Shown here in pieces: positions 469 to 44,275 of a stretch of 55,735 nt of DNA. This DNA comes from an uncultured virus (IMG/VR IMGVR_UViG_3300025127_000014). Lineage: Duplodnaviria > Heunggongvirae > Uroviricota > Caudoviricetes. The number at the start of each line of letters is the position of its first letter. The stretch's first letter is position 1. The notes beneath the pieces are model-generated. The model was not told the origin of the DNA, did not search any database, and worked only from the letters and a program-made list of their open reading frames with translations. A program made the translations under genes and the position numbers. The DNA lies in the IMG/VR virus record IMGVR_UViG_3300025127_000014; one strand, 5' to 3'.

Positions 469-1328
469 TTTCATTGTTAGGCATTGGTACAGCCGGCGAA
501 AATATAGTTGAATGTTTTCAAAACAATAAAGAATACGATTGTTATGTTATTTCAGACAACATTGAAAGATCAAGCAAATATCGTAGAAAAATCAAGAGGC
601 AAGAAAACCTTGAAGATTACGAAACTTCAATTCCAAATCTTAAAAAATTTTTTACTAATATTAATGATCATGTGCAAGTGTTTGTGTGCGGCGCTGGGCG
701 TACAGCAAACGCTACTCTGGCGATTCTGCAGTATTTACAAGATAAGAAGATTGATATTTTCTACATACAGCCAGATGTTGATCTTTTAATGGGCGTCAAT
801 AAACTTCAGGAAAGAGCGATTTTTGGTGTTCTGCAAGAATATGCCAGATCGGGCATTTTTAATTCTTTCACCGCTTTCAGCAATCCTATTTTGGAAGATT
901 CTATCGGCTCAGTCCCAATTAAAAAGTACTTTGAAACGATAAATAAAACTATTTATTATTGCGTACACTACAAAAATCTTTTTGATTATACATCGCCTAT
1001 AATTGGCAATCTATCGCCCCCTCCGGAGGTACAAAGACTCCGCGCCTTGGGGCGTGTGGATCCGTATAGTCTTGAAGAAAATTGGTATTTTAATCTTGAC
1101 AATTCCCGTGACGTATGTTACTATATCTGCATATCTACAGAAAAACTTGAGAAAGATGGAGATTTACACAAAAAAATTATTAAGAATCTTAAAGATAAAC
1201 CTCGCAATGCATTCAAAAACGTGTCGTATGCCGTTTATGAATCGCCATTCGAAACAGACTTTGGGTTTTGCGTTGCCCATACCAACGTAATTCAACAAAA
1301 AACTCTTGACAAGCTAGAACAAGAGTGA
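465..1328 (+). CDS. Divergent tubulin/FtsZ-like protein
   Basis: N-terminal LLGIGTAGENI matches FtsZ/tubulin GxGxAGxN loop; CGAGRTA at expected signature-loop position; length fits. Confidence 0.6.
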   Translation: MISLLGIGTAGENIVECFQNNKEYDCYVISDNIERSSKYRRKIKRQENLEDYETSIPNLKKFFTNINDHVQVFVCGAGRTANATLAILQYLQDKKIDIFYIQPDVDLLMGVNKLQERAIFGVLQEYARSGIFNSFTAFSNPILEDSIGSVPIKKYFETINKTIYYCVHYKNLFDYTSPIIGNLSPPPEVQRLRALGRVDPYSLEENWYFNLDNSRDVCYYICISTEKLEKDGDLHKKIIKNLKDKPRNAFKNVSYAVYESPFETDFGFCVAHTNVIQQKTLDKLEQE

Positions 1329-1334
1329 TACATT
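1306..1334 (+). promoter_or_regulatory. Sigma70-type promoter for SSB gene
   Basis: TTGACA-17-TACATT with TG upstream of -10. Confidence 0.7.
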
Positions 1335-1388
1335 AGATGCTGTGGAACGCACAGTATACTTTATAACAACAAATAGGAGAAAATACTA

Positions 1389-2159
1389 ATGTCAATCAAT
1401 ATGGAACTAATGAGGCAAAAACTTGCTTCCCTTCGTGGTGAAGGAAATGGTGATAGAGGGCCGTCTGTCTGGTTCAAGCCAGATGAAGGCGATCAAGATA
1501 TTCGGATCGTACCAACTGCTGATGGCGATCCGTTGAAGGAGATGTTCTTCCACTATAATGTGGGTGATCATAAGGGTGGTGTGCTTTGCCCCAAGCGCAA
1601 CTTCGGTGAGCGCTGCCCTGTATGCGATTTCGCGTCATCTTTGTGGCGCGAGGGCACTGAGAATAACGATGAGGAAAGCAAGAAGCTGGCAAAGTCACTT
1701 TTTGTTCGTCAACGTTACTTCTCTCCGGTTGTGGTACGCGGCCGTGAGGACGAAGGTGTTAAGGTCTATGGTTACGGAAAGACCGCGTATGAGTTGCTTT
1801 TGGGCTATATTTTAGATCCAGAGTACGGTGATATCACAGATTCTGTTGAAGGAACAGATATTACATTAACTTATACGAAACCCACACGTCCCGGTGCGTA
1901 TCCTCAAACCAACTTAAAGATGCGTCGGAACACTAGCCCCCTCCTAAGTGATCCCGATGCAATCCCCGGGCTTCTTCAAAATATGCCCGATTTTGACACT
2001 TTGTTCGAGCGCCTCACGCCTGAACAAGTTGATGCCATCCTCGATGAGCAGCTTTCTGGTAATACTTCTGCGGAAGCGCGCTCAAATCAAACCGAGGCCT
2101 ATGGCAAGAAGGAAGCCAGCGATGTTGACAAGGCATTTGATGAATTAATGGCCGGTTGA
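1389..2159 (+). CDS. Single-stranded DNA-binding protein, T4 gp32-like
   Basis: WFKP..G...IRIVP, His/Cys Zn ligands HYN..LCPK..CPVC, DITD..EGTDI, acidic tail DVDKAFDELMAG; AGGAG RBS. Confidence 0.85.
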   Translation: MSINMELMRQKLASLRGEGNGDRGPSVWFKPDEGDQDIRIVPTADGDPLKEMFFHYNVGDHKGGVLCPKRNFGERCPVCDFASSLWREGTENNDEESKKLAKSLFVRQRYFSPVVVRGREDEGVKVYGYGKTAYELLLGYILDPEYGDITDSVEGTDITLTYTKPTRPGAYPQTNLKMRRNTSPLLSDPDAIPGLLQNMPDFDTLFERLTPEQVDAILDEQLSGNTSAEARSNQTEAYGKKEASDVDKAFDELMAG

Positions 2160-2167
2160 CAGATGAA

Positions 2168-2198
2168 AGCCGATACGCCCCGGTTACAATAGGGCGCC
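2168..2198 (+). ncRNA. Predicted H-type pseudoknot, copy 1 (3' of SSB stop)
   Basis: AGCCG/CGGTT stem crossing CGCCC/GGGCG stem; short T run follows. Confidence 0.5.
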
Positions 2199-2228
2199 CT
2201 TTTTCAATAACATACAAGGAGATATATT

Positions 2229-2501
2229 ATGTTAGATTGGATCAAGTCCGTATGGGCTAAATGGAAAGTTCAAGTAAGTGTTGTTGGCGGCGTGCTAGTT
2301 GTAGCTACTACCTACGGTACATGCTCAGTTGAGCCACCCGACGCAGCACCTGCGGCTACGACCGAGGAAACAACCACGGCATTGCCGGCATCCTCGACTG
2401 AGACCACGGACGACTCCACCACCGGTACTACTGGCACCGATGGAACTACAACAGAGACAACGGGTGATGGAACCACCACTACAGAAACGACTACCGAGTA
2501 G
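2229..2501 (+). CDS. Small membrane-anchored or lipoprotein-like protein with Thr/acidic tail
   Basis: AAGGAG RBS; hydrophobic segment then TYGTC; Thr-rich low-complexity C-terminus. Confidence 0.8.
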   Translation: MLDWIKSVWAKWKVQVSVVGGVLVVATTYGTCSVEPPDAAPAATTEETTTALPASSTETTDDSTTGTTGTDGTTTETTGDGTTTTETTTE

Positions 2502-2507
2502 TCTAAG

Positions 2508-2540
2508 AGCCGCTGGCAGACCGGTGAAAAGTCTGCCGCC
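2508..2540 (+). ncRNA. Predicted H-type pseudoknot, copy 2
   Basis: GCCG/CGGT stem crossing GGCAGAC/GTCTGCC stem; same topology as copy 1. Confidence 0.5.
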
Positions 2541-2574: not shown

Positions 2575-3606
2575 ATGACTTACAAATTTCAAATGAATCA
2601 CTGGTTGGAAGTAATTACATCTTCCGCGCCTCCTACATGGGGTGTTGTCGGTGCTGATGGTGCCGTAGGTTATGCCACCGGCAGCGAACCAACGACTTGG
2701 ACTGGATACAGATCGCCCGCTGATGCATCTGCCAACGATCACACCGATCTTGGCTATGGAGAGGATGGTAGTGGAAATAATCGTTGGGTTCGAACAACAT
2801 CAAACAATAATCTTGAGTTGGCCTACACAGACGATATTACCGATAGTTCTGCTTGGAATAATGTCAACGTGACTGGTAGGCGCTACAATGTCAAGTGGGC
2901 AAATGATAAGTGGATTGCAATTGGGTCAACTTCGGAGGACGACATTCTAACCTCGACAGACGGCGCTACTTGGAATTCTGTTGACGTGTCAGGCTTAGGG
3001 TTATCAAACACCAACATCACATCATTGGCTACAGATGGTGGTAATAATTGGATCTTCGGCCAGAGTGCTAAAGTTTATGCTTCAACCGATCATGGTGTTA
3101 ATTGGTTCATGCTTAAAGACTTTGCCGATGGCTCTATTATCCACGAAGCAGCTTACTCGAACAACAAGTGGTATGTATTTAGAACCGATGTTGGGGGCAG
3201 TAATGTAGCTGAAAAGGTGGGGGTTGCTGCCTCTGCCAGTTCTGGAAGCTGGACGGACTCGGCGGATCTCAATATTGGTGACGTCGCTAGAGCCATGTTT
3301 GCTTCAGTTTCTACCGGATCAGCCTCTGAATCTACGGTCATTGTAGTCAATAGTAATGATGTTGCACGTAGTGTTGACAGCGGCGCTAATTTCACTAAGT
3401 TAAATAATGTTCTTTCCCACGGGTCTGCACGCTCTGTTACTTCAGATGGAGATGGTAATTGGGTTGTCTCACATGACGATGGTAGAATGTCATTTAGTAA
3501 TGATGACGGAGAAACTTGGTCGAGCGGCACGGCTAGCGGAATCCAGTTTGGTACTGGTACAGAGGACATCGATGCTGTCGCAGTAGATAAGATATTACCA
3601 CTATAA
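2575..3606 (+). CDS. Asp-box (BNR) repeat beta-propeller protein, possibly virion-associated
   Basis: Repeats STDGATW, STDHGVNW, SVDSGANF, SNDDGETW; GGAGGT RBS. Confidence 0.75.
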   Translation: MTYKFQMNHWLEVITSSAPPTWGVVGADGAVGYATGSEPTTWTGYRSPADASANDHTDLGYGEDGSGNNRWVRTTSNNNLELAYTDDITDSSAWNNVNVTGRRYNVKWANDKWIAIGSTSEDDILTSTDGATWNSVDVSGLGLSNTNITSLATDGGNNWIFGQSAKVYASTDHGVNWFMLKDFADGSIIHEAAYSNNKWYVFRTDVGGSNVAEKVGVAASASSGSWTDSADLNIGDVARAMFASVSTGSASESTVIVVNSNDVARSVDSGANFTKLNNVLSHGSARSVTSDGDGNWVVSHDDGRMSFSNDDGETWSSGTASGIQFGTGTEDIDAVAVDKILPL

Positions 3607-3622
3607 AACCGATCATTCTTCC

Positions 3623-3651
3623 TTGACAGCTTAATGTTATAGTGTTATTAT
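3623..3651 (+). promoter_or_regulatory. Sigma70-type promoter for recA
   Basis: TTGACA-17-TATTAT with extended TG. Confidence 0.75.
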
Positions 3652-3675: not shown

Positions 3676-4791
3676 ATGGCTAAAGCCAAGGCTGGTCGTG
3701 TATCTATGCACGATCTAATGAAGCTAGTAAATAAAAAAGCTGGCCGTGAGGTGGCACACGATCTTACCACCGACAATCCCACATCTGTTAAAGAGTGGAT
3801 CCCAACAGGCTCACGATGGCTTGATTCTATTATTTGCAAGGGTCAATTAGCCGGTATCCCTGTTGGTAAAATTACAGAGATTGCCGGACTTCAATCAACC
3901 GGTAAGTCTTACATGGCAGCACAAATTGCTGCTAATGCACAGAAGCAAGGCAAGCTTGTTGTCTACTTTGATTCTGAATCAGCTATTGATCCCACGTTCT
4001 TAGAAAGGACAGGTTGTGATCTTGAACGATTGATGTATGTGCAAGCACAATCAGTTGAGTTTGTTCTTGAGACTATCGAAGAGTTACTGGGAGCATCAGA
4101 TGAACAATTAGTCTTAATCTGGGATTCATTGGCGTTTACCCCGTCTATCTCAGATGTTGAGGGTGATTTCAACCCACAGTCAACAGTTGCAACCAAGGCT
4201 CGTATCTTGGCCAAGGGTATGTCAAAGCTTGTAATCCCGATTGCAGATCAAAAGGCAACATTTATTGTTCTCAATCAATTGAAGACCAATATCCCACAAG
4301 GTCCGATGGCAAGACAAATTGCGATGACCACACCATATATTACACCCGGTGGCAAAGCAATGCACTACTCTTATTCATTGCGCATTTGGCTCACCGGCAG
4401 AAAGTCTAAGGCTGCAGCAGTCCTTGATGAGAAGGGGTTCAAGATCGGCTCTGAGGTTAAGGTAAAGCTTGAAAAGTCAAGGTTTGGCACCGAGGGTAGA
4501 AACTGCACATTCCGTATTTTGTGGGGTACTGAAGAAATTGGTATCCAAGATCAAGAGTCATGGTTTGATGCTGTTAAGGGATCAAAACAAATGCAGTCCG
4601 CTGGTTCGTGGTACACACTAACGATGGGAGACTACACTAAGAAGTTTCAGCCATCTAAGTGGACTGAATTAGTGAAGGGTGATGATGAGTTCAGAGCTAA
4701 GATTCTTGAACTTATGGACGTTGAGGTTATTCAGAAATTTGATAATAGACAGGGTAATGCGGCTGACTATTATGATGAAGACGAAGAATAA
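3676..4791 (+). CDS. recA: RecA/UvsX recombinase
   Basis: IPTGS..LD, Walker A GLQSTGKS, YFDSESA, IWDSLA, NQLK, TPGGKAM. Confidence 0.95.
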   Translation: MAKAKAGRVSMHDLMKLVNKKAGREVAHDLTTDNPTSVKEWIPTGSRWLDSIICKGQLAGIPVGKITEIAGLQSTGKSYMAAQIAANAQKQGKLVVYFDSESAIDPTFLERTGCDLERLMYVQAQSVEFVLETIEELLGASDEQLVLIWDSLAFTPSISDVEGDFNPQSTVATKARILAKGMSKLVIPIADQKATFIVLNQLKTNIPQGPMARQIAMTTPYITPGGKAMHYSYSLRIWLTGRKSKAAAVLDEKGFKIGSEVKVKLEKSRFGTEGRNCTFRILWGTEEIGIQDQESWFDAVKGSKQMQSAGSWYTLTMGDYTKKFQPSKWTELVKGDDEFRAKILELMDVEVIQKFDNRQGNAADYYDEDEE

Positions 4792-13359: not shown

Positions 13360-14243
13360 GCAAACATTTGCATCTTGCAGGCATTGTGCCAATAGCTAAT
13401 TTTGATGATACATTTGGCATGGAATATCCATGGTGTTTATTACCTGTTGATCAACAATTTTCCATGATTCAAAAATCAGTTTTTGAATGTGCTATAGCAG
13501 GGTGCCAAACGATATGGATTGTGGCCAATGATGATATGGCTCCAATAATCAGAAAAACTTTGGGTGATTGGGTATATGATCCAGTTTACTATTACAGAAA
13601 GGATAAATTTTACAAGGACAAAAGAAAAGAAATACCAATTTATTATGTACCTGTTCACCCTAAAGACCGCGACCGACGCGATTCATATGGCTGGTCCGCT
13701 CTTTATGGCATGTATTCAGCGTGGTATGTCGCTTCACGTCTTTCTAAGTGGATTGTGCCTGAAAAATATTATGTGACATTTCCACATTCTGTTTTCAACA
13801 TTTACTCTTTACGTGAGAATAGACAACTTATATCACATCATGAGAATAATTTCTTCTTATCGTACGATGGACAGACAATTAAAAACAACCGGCATTTGCC
13901 TTTCACAATGTTTGGCGAAGACTTTAAAAATTGTCGACGCTTTGTAAACAAAGAAACAACACATACTTACGAAGATTTATTAGAGGGTGAGAAATATCCG
14001 TCTCGTAAGTTGCCGATAGACCAGCGCTGGTCAGCACGCAAGTTTAATATCAGTAAAGTTTTCTCCCAAGTTTCAGAAAACAATTGTCACGTTGTACCTT
14101 TGGAGTGGTTCTGGGATATTGGTGACTGGGATGGTTATAGGCAATACTTATCTAGCGAAAACTTTATACAAAAGCCTTCTGACAACTTGACAGCGACCCA
14201 TAAACACACTATACTATATAATACTCAGGAGGGTGAAGAATGA
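13356..14243 (+). CDS. Sugar-phosphate nucleotidyltransferase-like protein (divergent)
   Basis: AGIVPIA, PWCLLPV, AGCQTIWIV, WFWDIGDWDGY; GAGGT then GTG at 13356. Confidence 0.6.
   Translation: MSKHLHLAGIVPIANFDDTFGMEYPWCLLPVDQQFSMIQKSVFECAIAGCQTIWIVANDDMAPIIRKTLGDWVYDPVYYYRKDKFYKDKRKEIPIYYVPVHPKDRDRRDSYGWSALYGMYSAWYVASRLSKWIVPEKYYVTFPHSVFNIYSLRENRQLISHHENNFFLSYDGQTIKNNRHLPFTMFGEDFKNCRRFVNKETTHTYEDLLEGEKYPSRKLPIDQRWSARKFNISKVFSQVSENNCHVVPLEWFWDIGDWDGYRQYLSSENFIQKPSDNLTATHKHTILYNTQEGEE
14187..14215 (+). promoter_or_regulatory. Sigma70-type promoter for dnaE
   Basis: TTGACA-17-TATACT. Confidence 0.75.
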
Positions 14244-17200
14244 ATCGTGTTGATTCTAAGATTAAATTTGTTGGGCTTCACGCCCACTCAGTTGCTGGTT
14301 CCATTTTCGATGCAATTGGGTTTCCGCAAGATCATATGGATTTTGCTTATCAAAATGGGTGTGATGCGCTAGCATTGACTGACCACGGCAACATGAATGG
14401 GCTTGCATATCAAGTTCTGCATGCTAAAAAGATGCAGTCTGAGGGCAAGGAGTTCAAGCCAATCTTTGGCTGCGAAGCATACTTTACACCTTCTATCGCT
14501 GAATGGCATGACGCATATAATCAAGCCATGGCAGATAAGAAGAAGGCCCGCGCAATTAAAAAAGATGCCCAGTCTGGTGCTACTGTTGAAGACGAAGGCG
14601 ACAGCAAGAAAATTCAAGGTATTCTCAAGCGCCGCCGACACCTTGTATTGCTTGTCCAGAATCAAACAGGGCTTAACAATCTATTTAAATTAGTATCAGA
14701 ATCATACCAACCAGAGAATTTCTATCGCTACCCACGTATCGACTACGCGCTACTTAAGAAGTACAACGAGGGCATCATTGCTTCCTCTGCTTGTCTTGGT
14801 GGGGTGTATGCTGGTAACTACTGGGAAAACCGTGAAGAAGGAACCGAAGCGGTGCTTGAAGCTATGCGTGAATCAACAAGACGTATGGTCGACATTTTTG
14901 GTGATCGCTGGTATGCCGAGATCCAATGGAACAACATAAAAGAGCAACATGAACTCAACCAGTATGTAATCCAAGTGGCAAAAGAGTTTGGTGTTTCTCT
15001 AGTCACCACTGCTGATAGCCACTATCCAAACCCTGATGCTTGGAAGGATCGCGAACTCTACAAGCGCCTAGGCTGGCTCGGCAAAGGTACACCCTCTTGG
15101 GCTGAAGGAGAGTCCGAATTACCAGACGGGGTTGAAGAGATTGGCTATGAGTTGTACCCTAAGAACGGAGATCAAATTTGGGAAAGTTACAAACAATATT
15201 CCCAAGAGCAAGGTTTTGAATACGATGATGAATTAATTTTGGAGAGTATTGAAGAAACACACCGTATCGCTTTTGACCGTATTGAAAGCTTCTTGCCTGA
15301 CAATACTGTACGTCTACCTGAATTTGTCGTCCCAGCCGGCTTCACGGCTACTCAGGCCTTGGTAAATTTTGCGCTTGAGGGTCTTAAGGACAGAGGGCTG
15401 CACACAAGCAAGGAATACACTGATAGGCTTAAGAGCGAACTTAATGTTATTGATGATCGTGGTTTCTCAAAGTATTTCTTGACCATGAAAGCTATCGTTG
15501 ATGTTACTGACAAGATGATGCTTGCTGGCCCGGGCCGCGGCTCTGCTGCTGGCTCACTCGTTGCCTACGCTCTAGGTATTACGCAGATTGACCCCATCAA
15601 ACACGGTCTTCTGTTCTCACGCTTCCTTCGTTCTGATGCAACAGACTATCCTGATATTGACTATGATGTGTCAGACCCGATGCTCTTGAAAGAAAAGCTT
15701 GTGGAAATGTGGGGTGAGAACATGGTCGCACCAATTTCTAACTGGAATACATTGCAACTCAAATCTTTGATTAAAGATATTTCGAAGCTGTATAATATCC
15801 CATTCACCGAGGCCAACACAGTTACATCTATCATGATCCGTGAGGCGACACCAGAGGCAAAACGAAAGCATGGAATCAAGGCAGGTGTTTACGTGCCAAC
15901 GTGGGAAGAGGTAATGGAGTTCTCGCCTACCCTACAATTATACTTAGCTAAATATCCACAAGTTAAGACGCACGTTGAGGGGCTGGTCGGTCAGGTACGT
16001 TCGTGTTCTCGACACGCCGGCGGAGTCGTTATCGCGGAAGACTTAGATAAGAGCATGCCACTGATCAACTCAGGTGGTGTCCGTCAGACTCCGTGGGCCG
16101 AAGGCCAGAACGTTCGCCACCTTGAACCAATGGGATTCATTAAGTTTGATCTGCTTGGACTTTCAACGCTGAAGATGATGGAGGTATGTATTCAACATAT
16201 TTTACGCCGTCATCATGGCGTGGAAGAACCGACCTTCTCACAAGTCAGGGATTATTATAATGAACATCTTCATCCTGATGTGATCAATCTTGAAGATCAG
16301 GCGGTGTATGAAAACATTTTCCATACCGGTAAATGGGCAGGGGTCTTTCAGTTTACAGAATCCGGTGCACAAGGTTTCTGCACCCGCGTGAAGCCTCGTA
16401 ACATTATTGATGTTTCTGCTATTACTTCAATCTTTCGGCCGGGCCCTCTGTCTGCTGGTGTAGATGCTGATTACGTTGAAGCCAAGAATCACCCACACTA
16501 CATCAAATATCTTTCTGACGAAGCGAGAGAGATCACAGAAGAAACATTTGGCTTTCTAATCTTCCAAGAACAAATCGCTCTCCTTGCACACAAGCTTGGC
16601 GGTCTGACACTTGATGAAGGTAACATGCTTCGTAAGGTGTTGACAAAGAAAGGAACAGGCAAGAACAGCGTCAAGGGTAGACTGCACGATAAATTTATCA
16701 CTGGGTGTGTATCCAAGAATATTGGTAGAGATGAAGCACAGGCACTGTGGGATAAGTTCGAATACTTTTCTGGATATGGTTTTAACAAGTCGCATGCTGT
16801 TTCATACAGCGTGATCTCGTATCAATGTGCGTGGCTTTTGAATTATTATGAAGCAGAGTGGGTGGCAGCGTTCCTTGACAAGGAGCCTGAGACACGCAAG
16901 GAGAAGGCAATTAATATTGCTAAGTCTTTAGGGTATTCAATTGCACCGGTTGATGTTAACAAGTCTGGGCGTGTTTGGGAAATTGCCGAAGATAACTCCA
17001 CGCTTATTCAACCTTTAACGTCAATCAAGGGTTTTGGAGATTCGGCACTTGAACAGATTCTTGATCATCGTCCGTTTAACGATATTGAAGACTTGCTCTT
17101 CCGTGAGGAAATAACTTATTCAAAGCTGAACAAAAAGGCGCTAGATGCTCTGTGTCGTGCCGGCGCCATGGATAATTTGGTTGACGAACGTTTCTCGGGT

Positions 17201-17671
17201 CGCAAACATTTCTGGTCTGCCGCGGTTGTTGACAGGCCTAAGAACAAAAAGAAGTTTGCTGAGAACATTGATATCTATGGCGCTGAAGGAGACTTTAGTG
17301 AAGAAGAGATTATCCACTTTAAAACTGAATTGACCGGTGTCTTTCCGATGAACTTAGTTATTAGCACTGATACGATTACTCGGCTGCGCGAAAAATTTAT
17401 TCCGCCTATCTCAGAGTTTGATCCGGATTTGTGTGTTTGTTGGTTTATACCACGCAAGATCATCCCCAAGAAGACAAAGAATGGCAAGGCTTATTGGATT
17501 GTTGAAGTTATTGACTCCAACAATGAGACAGAGAAGATTAGGTGCTGGGGTATCAAGCCAGAAAAAGACAAGATTTTCGTCAATAGACCTTACATGGCTA
17601 AACTTAAATACGACGAACAGTGGGGTTTCTCAACTTATGCGGTCGGAAAGACATTTAAACTACTTGGGTGA
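14240..17671 (+). CDS. dnaE: DNA polymerase III alpha subunit (family C) with PHP domain
   Basis: LHAHS, ALTDHGNM, GCEAY, DSHY, GPGRGSAAGSLVAYALGIT, PDIDYD, HAGGVVI, KFDLLGL, YGFNKSHA. Confidence 0.96.
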   Translation: MNRVDSKIKFVGLHAHSVAGSIFDAIGFPQDHMDFAYQNGCDALALTDHGNMNGLAYQVLHAKKMQSEGKEFKPIFGCEAYFTPSIAEWHDAYNQAMADKKKARAIKKDAQSGATVEDEGDSKKIQGILKRRRHLVLLVQNQTGLNNLFKLVSESYQPENFYRYPRIDYALLKKYNEGIIASSACLGGVYAGNYWENREEGTEAVLEAMRESTRRMVDIFGDRWYAEIQWNNIKEQHELNQYVIQVAKEFGVSLVTTADSHYPNPDAWKDRELYKRLGWLGKGTPSWAEGESELPDGVEEIGYELYPKNGDQIWESYKQYSQEQGFEYDDELILESIEETHRIAFDRIESFLPDNTVRLPEFVVPAGFTATQALVNFALEGLKDRGLHTSKEYTDRLKSELNVIDDRGFSKYFLTMKAIVDVTDKMMLAGPGRGSAAGSLVAYALGITQIDPIKHGLLFSRFLRSDATDYPDIDYDVSDPMLLKEKLVEMWGENMVAPISNWNTLQLKSLIKDISKLYNIPFTEANTVTSIMIREATPEAKRKHGIKAGVYVPTWEEVMEFSPTLQLYLAKYPQVKTHVEGLVGQVRSCSRHAGGVVIAEDLDKSMPLINSGGVRQTPWAEGQNVRHLEPMGFIKFDLLGLSTLKMMEVCIQHILRRHHGVEEPTFSQVRDYYNEHLHPDVINLEDQAVYENIFHTGKWAGVFQFTESGAQGFCTRVKPRNIIDVSAITSIFRPGPLSAGVDADYVEAKNHPHYIKYLSDEAREITEETFGFLIFQEQIALLAHKLGGLTLDEGNMLRKVLTKKGTGKNSVKGRLHDKFITGCVSKNIGRDEAQALWDKFEYFSGYGFNKSHAVSYSVISYQCAWLLNYYEAEWVAAFLDKEPETRKEKAINIAKSLGYSIAPVDVNKSGRVWEIAEDNSTLIQPLTSIKGFGDSALEQILDHRPFNDIEDLLFREEITYSKLNKKALDALCRAGAMDNLVDERFSGRKHFWSAAVVDRPKNKKKFAENIDIYGAEGDFSEEEIIHFKTELTGVFPMNLVISTDTITRLREKFIPPISEFDPDLCVCWFIPRKIIPKKTKNGKAYWIVEVIDSNNETEKIRCWGIKPEKDKIFVNRPYMAKLKYDEQWGFSTYAVGKTFKLLG

Positions 17672-24110: not shown

Positions 24111-24782
24111 ATGGCTCGTAAAACACTTTTAACCGAGGCTGAAATTCGCAGCTTCATGAAGCTTGCAAATTTAACACCTGTTGGTGATGCGAGACTACAA
24201 GAATGGGCGCCCCCTATTGAGGAAGAGGAAGTTCCTCTTGGAGAGGAAGAAGAGGAAATGGCCCTCGATGACGCCGAAGACGATGCACCCGCAGAGCCTG
24301 CTGGTGACATGGAAATGGATATGGATGTAGATGTCTCTGATGACGCCGGCGACATGGACATGGATATGGACATGGGTATGGATGATGCTCCCGCTGCTGG
24401 CGGAGACAAAGAAGAAGAATTCATGGATCTTGTCCAACAACTTGCTGATTTGATTGGTGTTGATGTTGAGATGGACGATGGCGGCGAAGCTGATCTTGGT
24501 GACGACGACATGGATATGGACATGGACATGGATATGGGTGACGATGTGGAGGCCCCGGCAGGAGGTGATGACTTGGGAGACGAAGCCGCACTCGATGACG
24601 ATGACGATATGGATGCTGCGGGCGAAGAAGAGCCCGGAATGCGTTATATGGAAGGTGAGGAAGACGACATTGTTAATGAAGTCAGCCGCCGAGTCGCTCG
24701 TCGTCTTCAACAAGAGAGCAAGAAGCAACAAGTTGTTGATCAGCTTGCGGAGCGCATTTTTAATCGCCTTGCGAGCAAGTAA
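24111..24782 (+). CDS. Highly acidic low-complexity protein with (MD)n repeats; possible scaffold/internal head protein
   Basis: AAGGAG RBS; D/E-rich core; helical termini. Confidence 0.8.
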   Translation: MARKTLLTEAEIRSFMKLANLTPVGDARLQEWAPPIEEEEVPLGEEEEEMALDDAEDDAPAEPAGDMEMDMDVDVSDDAGDMDMDMDMGMDDAPAAGGDKEEEFMDLVQQLADLIGVDVEMDDGGEADLGDDDMDMDMDMDMGDDVEAPAGGDDLGDEAALDDDDDMDAAGEEEPGMRYMEGEEDDIVNEVSRRVARRLQQESKKQQVVDQLAERIFNRLASK

Positions 24783-44096: not shown

Positions 44097-44275
44097 GAGT
44101 AGGGAGTTTGGTACACAGCCGCCACGATCCCGGTTATCAAGGTATTGTCATGGAGATAGGCCCAGAGGAAACGCGTGTCGACCATGAACGCCGCGCCTGT
44201 CGAGTGCGATGGCTGGACGGCGGCGAATCTATTGAGTTTATTAGAATGTTGGAGGTTATAAGTGAAGGAAAATAG
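44093..44275 (+). CDS. SH3/KOW-like small protein (MRVGSLV...LEVI)
   Basis: Family motif. Confidence 0.75.
   Translation: MRVGSLVHSRHDPGYQGIVMEIGPEETRVDHERRACRVRWLDGGESIEFIRMLEVISEGK

Follow-up and report, generated by a model that had tools for sequence, protein, structure and literature searches.

A GC-rich duplex that lies on the coding strand right after a stop codon and is followed by a U-run is the arrangement of intrinsic terminators, as defined in PMC12288461, and of intercistronic 3'-stabilizing hairpins. Beside gp32-type genes, the gene 32 operator of phages T2, T4 and RB69 is a compact H-type pseudoknot with stacked stems, located in the leader (PMC3014915); compact knots classed as CPK1 (PMC11262651) have a loop 1 (L1) of 1–2 nt, a stem 2 (S2) of 6–7 bp and zero nt between the stems. 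A pseudoknot near genes for single-stranded DNA-binding protein (SSB) and other DNA-handling functions is also known as the STAXI motif (RF01728; PMC2864571), and the PeSL elements of T4-type phages (PMC2839356, PMC4122927) are short, repeated, intergenic, terminator-like stem elements that form crossover points for accessory genes. Additionally, the artificial F1Pk aptamers obtained by SELEX hold an ANAA loop in the minor groove of a UCCG:CGGG stem, giving a triplex (PMC3561961), and a 2023 viral catalogue (PMC10690425) lists the unnamed candidates DNAVirus_1121, _8655 and _2851, of 50–58 nt, from marine Caudovirales, at most 25 bp upstream of recA or dam.

The window (the whole stretch of 55,735 nt that was analysed, from an uncultured member of the Caudoviricetes) carries two copies of an element that shares features with several of these systems. 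It is part of a large phage, with relatives of up to 194 kb. The gene order around the element is a PolA fragment, a gp32-like SSB, a 90-aa Thr-rich gene, a 343-aa gene and RecA/UvsX; farther along lie UvdE, a 5'-3' exonuclease, a DnaB-like helicase, a class II RNR, DnaE, ClpP, GroEL and six tRNAs. The features of the SSB–recA locus are:

1306..1334, plus strand: putative sigma70-like promoter of the SSB transcript (10/12 consensus; consensus match only)
1335..1360, plus strand: covarying SSB leader hairpin (z = -2.9), then an A/U-rich stretch and ribosome-binding site (RBS)
1389..2159, plus strand: gp32-like SSB, 256 aa (PF08804, E 6e-17; phrog_1192)
2168..2196, plus strand: pseudoknot copy 1, a degenerate member (stem 1 (S1) 5 bp, L1 3 nt, S2 5 bp, loop 3 (L3) ACAATA)
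2197..2204, plus strand: tail of copy 1, CCC and then a 5-nt T-run displaced 3 nt from S2
2229..2501, plus strand: 90-aa accessory gene, with a hydrophobic N-terminal segment and a Thr/Glu/Asp-rich tail
2509..2537, plus strand: pseudoknot copy 2, a canonical member (S1 4 bp, L1 CT, S2 7 bp, L3 GAAAA)
2575..3606, plus strand: 343-aa accessory gene, probably a BNR/WD40-like repeat protein (a lead only)
3623..3651, plus strand: putative sigma70-like recA promoter (11/12 consensus match)
3676..4791, plus strand: RecA/UvsX-like recombinase (PF00154; phrog_97), which closes the variable slot

Copy 1 starts 8 nt past the SSB TGA, which ends at 2159. Its S1 pairs AGCCG (2168–2172) with CGGTT (2181–2185), one of the five pairs being G-U, L1 is ATA, and S2 pairs CGCCC (2176–2180) with GGGCG (2192–2196). 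In copy 2, GCCG (2509–2512) and CGGT (2522–2525) form an S1 of 4 bp, again including one G-U pair, and GGCAGAC (2515–2521) and GTCTGCC (2531–2537) form S2, which is extendable by one U-G pair; the unpaired A2508 stands 6 nt after the TAG at 2501, and the tail holds TT only. The letters and spacing of both copies given in a preliminary description of this DNA thus hold on re-reading the sequence. The summed stacking of the stems comes to about -21 and -23 kcal/mol for the two copies, loop penalties excluded. With its L1 of CT and S2 of 7 bp, copy 2 lies within the CPK1 ranges, from which copy 1 deviates in both respects (3 nt and 5 bp). There are zero nt between the stems in both copies and in every row of the alignment discussed below; this zero gap was required by the descriptor, and the same register held in tests that did not select it. 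Coaxial stacking of the two stems is predicted from the sequence.

A strict Watson–Crick pseudoknot scan missed both copies because S1 holds a G-U pair, the terminator scan of the window listed neither, and the promoter scan gave no strong sigma70 match after either. A loose pseudoknot descriptor matched the window five times, compared with 1.25 matches per shuffle, and the pattern AGCCG-N6-12-CGGT four times, compared with 0.92; a further match to the AGCCG/CGGT pattern, at 44117, was rejected, as it has no S2. A model of the element found just these two copies, which match it by construction, and none upstream of 1389. From the window alone, copy 1 could still be a chance match; it is the homologues that settle the reality of the element.

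Retrieval with the SSB protein gave 80 loci, 76 of them with sequence past the SSB stop, and the element follows that stop in 75 of the 76; the exception, L063, carries the second knot type described below. After deduplication, and with the window included, it is present in 47 of 48 SSB loci (44 by expression match and three by eye). Among these relatives S2 runs through the series GGCAGAC, GGCACCC, GCGCCC and CGCCC, of which copy 1 represents the degenerate end. An alignment of 83 copies (window copy 1 and 82 of the 91 picked) has 94.2% of its cells paired, compared with 25–38% in slid-register controls, and nine of the 12 pairs, in both helices, show changes on both sides. Since these rows had been chosen for pairing, two tests were made without selection for S1. 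In a search of viral contigs for the S2 hairpin, CCG stood 1–3 nt upstream in 37 of the 38 orientations whose loop starts with CGG, compared with four of 220 other orientations, in both cases among the matches listed. With the S2 pattern fixed, at least three S1 pairs formed in the expected register in 95 of the 123 distinct matches listed, compared with six of the 113 listed for a permuted stem of equal composition.

These results bear out the claim of a conserved H-type pseudoknot in the 3' untranslated region; moreover, the S1 pairing is retained among homologues and covaries. The claim that S1 is conserved and S2 free is correct for the two window copies and reversed across the family: by comparison of its members, the S2 sequence (GGCAGAC/GTCTGCC) is the conserved part, and S1 varies outside its inner G-C pair, swapping freely among GCCG/CGGT, TCCG/CGGA, CCTCG/CGAGG, CACG/CGTG, TGGCG/CGCCA and ACTG/CAGT. 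Over 236 copies the outer S1 pair is C-G in 73, G-U in 67, A-G in 32 and G-C in 17, and L1 is CT or AT in 216; S2 is 7 bp in most copies, or 8 bp if the U of L1 pairs, and L3 ends A-rich in nearly all. An A-rich loop 3 is expected for minor-groove contacts in pseudoknots. Nested folds around the element had suggested that the knot might alternate with an extended hairpin; such a switch was rejected, the native value being 0.225 and that with flanks swapped inside the GCCG class 0.204 +/- 0.03.

On this comparative evidence, the element is a widespread family of compact H-type pseudoknots that follow genes in many unrelated phages. Upstream genes, annotated by one representative per apparent group with many matching no family, include SSBs of the gp2.5/Enc34, phrog_9002 and PF00436 types, DUF669, RecT, exonuclease VIII, AAA ATPases, capsid protein PF19821 and tail tube; downstream genes include RecA, a Dam-type methylase, YqaJ exonuclease, DNA polymerase and head–tail proteins. 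Read by eye, the element is present in all 45 distinct loci of the capsid PF19821 family and in 12 of the 58 phrog_9002 loci, most of the remainder having plain GC hairpins. In the complete 194-kb relative the model matches three times, always between SSB and recA and never behind its other genes; a second complete relative gives one weak match (E 0.78). In bacterial genomes true copies are rare and pattern matches mostly chance, with S1 formed in 12 of 130 distinct ones, and 11 matches in the 80 bacterial loci passed the model. Convincing copies from bacterial assemblies (L336, L378, L390, L404 and L355, the last after a tail-tube-like gene) come from Lentisphaerae, Verrucomicrobiae, Desulfatibacillum and Bacteroidia records, and the host range of the carriers may be broad.

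The element is tied to the upstream stop codon and, in many copies, to a displaced U-run. Of 103 pattern-selected copies, 74 have a same-strand stop no more than 40 nt upstream, compared with 26 of 101 for the opposite strand and a fraction of 0.166 at random positions; the spacer from stop to knot has a median of 9 nt over 214 copies (range 3–39 nt). In the gp32 family the T frequency reaches 0.75–0.94 at positions 4–7 after S2, against a background of 0.25. The T-run is displaced from S2 by 2–4 nt in this family and mostly by 5–6 nt in the capsid family, or by one nt less if the U of L1 pairs. Of the 59 gp32-family copies with TTT, only two have it at offset 0–1, compared with eight of 13 ordinary hairpins with TTT from the two complete relatives and the window; 51 of the 236 copies lack TTT within 16 nt. 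A sigma70 promoter follows in 10 of the 236 copies and an RBS within 90 nt in 138, the median distance from S2 to the next start being 26 nt. At least five T are present in nine of the 10 copies before a promoter, compared with 35 of 121 before an RBS (p ~6e-4, relatedness not corrected). In three distinct cases a tRNA starts 7–8 nt after the knot. At L014, L015, L034, L035 and L208 it is a tRNA-Met a few nt past the knot, with no space for a promoter.

According to PMC12288461, a duplex 11–12 nt from the RNA 3' end stabilizes a transcriptional pause, and the geometry of the displaced U-run would fit such a duplex-stabilized pause. From the fold, strand, position, U-run and crossover pattern, all obtained by comparison, we infer pausing, termination, a nuclease block and a step-down of expression. 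The account that we favour, on balance and with modest confidence, is that of a leaky pause or terminator site that doubles as a barrier to 3' exonucleases and steps expression down behind abundant proteins. The element would be a portable 3'-end module of phage mRNAs, folding just past the reach of a ribosome on the stop codon into a compact CPK1-type knot with S1 and S2 stacked gaplessly and an A-rich L3. RNA polymerase would pause at the short U-run 2–6 nt past the knot, and a fraction would terminate; whether the 3' end arises by termination or by a downstream cut, the knot would block 3'-to-5' exonucleases. More product would thereby be made from the upstream cistron (SSB, capsid or tail tube) than from the one downstream (RecA, methylase, exonuclease, polymerase or adaptor), and read-through would still feed promoterless downstream genes. 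As a by-product, near-identical copies of 30 nt would serve as homology patches for accessory-gene gain and loss between SSB and recA.

Several observations argue for a leaky 3'-end barrier. The products of the upstream genes are largely stoichiometric (gp32, gp2.5/Enc34, phrog_9002 and PF00436 SSBs, RecT, capsid PF19821 and tail tube); ordinary GC hairpins can fill the slot instead, both at phrog_9002 loci and at L633, where a plain hairpin and U-run take the place of the element; and the fold tests, the tie to the upstream stop and the U-run that is strongest before promoters all agree with it, as does crossover between identical copies at L040 and L043. Copy 2, having TT only, cannot be a normal terminator. 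Leaky rather than strong termination is indicated by this copy, by the 51 copies without TTT and by the promoterless genes between copies and the closely following tRNAs, both of which need read-through; in the window, the promoter scan found no match at the start of the 343-aa gene, after copy 2. Against this account, the U-run, sometimes missing, does not adjoin the stem, unlike that of canonical terminators. The hairpin loop of the element, unlike that of intrinsic terminators, is locked in a covarying second stem, and its stem sequence is conserved across unrelated phages. A physical barrier alone leaves unexplained both that single S2 sequence and the restriction of the knot in the 194-kb relative to the SSB–recA slot; moreover, the bias to genes handling single-stranded DNA exceeds what abundance alone obviously predicts, and many upstream genes are without family. 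Of the roles proposed earlier for a 3'-UTR motif, a function at the 3' end (exonuclease block or leaky terminator) would thus be the best reading, and SSB nucleation has lost ground.

At L627, L655 and L658 the slot after the SSB stop holds other hairpin or possible pseudoknot structures. In 58 of the 68 distinct loci from more distant gp32 relatives, a different pseudoknot stands in the first slot past the gp32 stop; three of these loci carry both types. This knot replaces or precedes the first type (L602–L681, L063 and L834–L913). It has a covarying S1 of 3 bp, conserved loop letters CAGG and CAG, and an S2 of 7 bp with a covarying closing pair; its T-run is weaker, many copies having no U-run, and its L3 can host an inserted hairpin (L651, L660). 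Of the 69 long loci found by a pattern search, 66 have it by gp32 or recA; no Rfam family matches it, and the window lacks it. L608 shows the tRNA-Met arrangement noted above with this second type. A second knot with different loops in the same slot would suggest that the slot selects a knot, not any hairpin. An unlikely but distinct form of 3'-end site is worth stating: the sequence-specific knot itself might pause or release RNA polymerase 2–6 nt farther upstream than a hairpin terminator can, with an efficiency set by a factor that recognizes S2, possibly free SSB. If this were true, unrelated phages could couple the output of recombinase and replication enzymes to their load of single-stranded DNA.

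The preliminary description had also proposed a nucleation site for SSB, which can be framed as an operator acting in trans like that of T4 gene 32: free SSB would nucleate on the knot, spread over the A/U-rich spacer and repress the next gene, for instance recA, until single-stranded DNA titrates it. The CPK1-type fold is shared with the T2/T4 operator, the association with SSB and annealing genes is strong and the bias to ssDNA-handling genes has no other ready explanation; recA is directly next in 14 related loci, and the next start lies a median 26 nt from S2 (138 of 236 copies with an RBS). An A/U-rich stretch overlapping an RBS does follow copy 1 and the 138 copies that have an RBS within 90 nt, but not the copies before promoters or tRNAs. 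Unlike the gene 32 operator, the element stands 3' of the SSB gene rather than in its leader, and it recurs behind capsid (45/45), tail-tube and several families of SSB genes; the 10 copies before a new promoter and the three before a tRNA lead no cistron. Moreover, the SSB leader has a conserved hairpin of its own and no copy of the element lies upstream of SSB. That hairpin, at 1335–1360 and present in most of the SSB leaders inspected (every fourth distinct leader), is a candidate autoregulatory site of the SSB gene, unrelated to the downstream pseudoknot, and may be one of the candidates already published for the region upstream of gp32 genes. The nucleation idea is weakened by these contexts, and we consider it rather unlikely. 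An inverted repeat at 1303–1325, over the -35 box of the SSB promoter, is kept with changes in several relatives and is a possible repressor site.

Alternatively, binding might itself be the function: a factor of host or phage origin (polymerase, nuclease or chaperone) would read the fixed S2 and the A-rich loop. The sequence specificity of S2 across unrelated phages would be explained, the second knot type has conserved loop letters, and the CCG:CGG S1 with its A-rich L3 resembles the protein-binding F1Pk knots (PMC3561961). The aptamers, however, are artificial, the window copies have GCCG:CGGT, and the natural family varies S1 and fixes S2, so that the likeness probably reflects a favoured fold. 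Many compensatory swaps are tolerated in S1, horizontal spread and recombination between copies can also keep a sequence constant, and the element has no linked partner gene; we hold a dedicated binding site to be rather improbable.

A stabilizer of 5' ends, or a block to 5'-to-3' exonucleases of the xrRNA kind, would protect or boost the downstream cistron, and would be in keeping with a compact knot some 20–30 nt before the RBS in many copies and with the missing U-run in many copies of the second type. Its position is nevertheless tied to the upstream stop, a copy that precedes a promoter would have nothing to protect, the U-run indicates a 3' end and the downstream genes are mostly low-demand enzymes, which makes this reading quite doubtful.

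The repeats also raise the question of a site acting primarily on DNA. Each SSB–recA slot holds one to four copies, with promoterless genes between them: the minimal SSB–knot–recA layout occurs in 14 loci, and the others insert genes, the small ones each trailed by a copy. The Thr-rich gene is found in 23 of 77 related loci examined, and a further copy follows it in all 22 that have sequence there (read by eye). L040 differs from L043 by an extra 305-aa gene, which sits between two identical copies of the element, and the 80-nt flanks on both sides are 100% identical; including this pair, both flanks reach at least 80% in 19 of 34 matching pairings, many of them redundant. Between the window and L001 or L005, similarity falls as soon as copy 2 is passed, from 0.71 and 0.80 on its left to 0.57 and 0.55 on its right. 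The suggestion that the two copies bracket the Thr-rich gene like a cassette is therefore well founded, given the second copy in 22/22 loci and the crossover pairs. A recombination site for gene cassettes, attC- or PeSL-like, with an incidental RNA fold would account for exact gain and loss between identical copies, for their number per slot and for the accessory mini-genes each trailed by a copy. It sits poorly with the copies behind capsid genes, single in 45/45 distinct loci (where a second copy was neither sought nor noticed), with strand-specific G-U pairs and an A-rich L3 that fit an RNA tertiary fold, and with the annotated genes, among which no site-specific recombinase adjoins the element; moreover, unlike PeSL, the element has no built-in promoter, is a pseudoknot rather than a simple stem-loop and keeps to one slot per genome in this family. 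We regard such a DNA site as very doubtful: the copies mark points of gene gain and loss, which we read as a consequence of the repeats rather than their main job.

Finally, a stimulator of stop-codon read-through or recoding, comparable to retroviral knots a few nt after a stop, is highly improbable despite spacers of 8 and 6 nt in the window and a family median of 9 nt, and was rejected on reading frames, there being neither a fixed spacer (3–39 nt, with all three stop codons in use) nor a conserved open frame: an immediate second in-frame stop is present in 28 of 214 copies and the next stop falls within 25 codons in 168 of 214, and in the window the SSB extension ends after 10 codons and that of the Thr-rich gene runs in a different frame from the next gene.

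The element has no counterpart in Rfam. A search there gave only tRNAs in the window at the gathering cut-off, and no relevant match to the element at an E limit of 10, nor on 18 loci at a limit of 5; likenesses to the fluoride riboswitch, the guanidine-III riboswitch and pistol were dropped, as Rfam lent them no support. The STAXI model, which exceeded its cut-off in 13 of 81 genomes as a positive control, had no match in 2100–2620 at E up to 10, and neither model matches the other; unlike the element, whose copies are separated by genes and lack a UUCG loop, STAXI has two or three head-to-tail units with no genes between, UUCG loops, another consensus and an Enterobacterales distribution. 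Among cultured phages, SSB relatives are distant (best 33–38% identity) and a search with copy 2 found no full match. The literature search found no description of this pseudoknot; judged by the description and neighbouring genes given in the catalogue PMC10690425, the element may be among its candidates DNAVirus_1121, _8655 and _2851. It represents a real, strongly covarying RNA family across unrelated phage lineages, without an Rfam model. If the element terminates or pauses transcription, the rules of intrinsic termination would extend to a pseudoknot with a displaced U-run, and terminator scanners like the one applied to the window miss such sites. The family would also explain how a hypervariable gene slot builds up between SSB and recA and, at 30 nt, is a potential compact part for step-down or 3' stabilization.

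A number of smaller observations concern the genes of the slot and the rest of the window. The 90-aa Thr-rich gene matched no family in Pfam and PHROG searches. In L001–L012, L027, L029, L031, L042, L059 and L065, the SSB is followed by a mini-gene of 32–36 aa, whose product has an acidic tail and a signal peptide that stops at a lipobox-like Cys, and then by a knot copy; the sequences of this mini-gene and of the Thr-rich gene suggest envelope-located accessory proteins. L205 has an Hc1-like histone gene in the slot after SSB. Upstream of SSB, the 287-aa gene at 465–1328 has an N-terminus that we took to be tubulin/FtsZ-like, a likeness without support from Pfam, PHROG or PDB sequence searches. 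Adjoining ClpP and GroEL, 24111–24782 encodes a 223-aa extremely acidic protein with Asp/Met repeats and no Pfam match. The phage also carries two polymerases, of the DnaE and PolA types (window positions 14240–17671 and 1–468, respectively).
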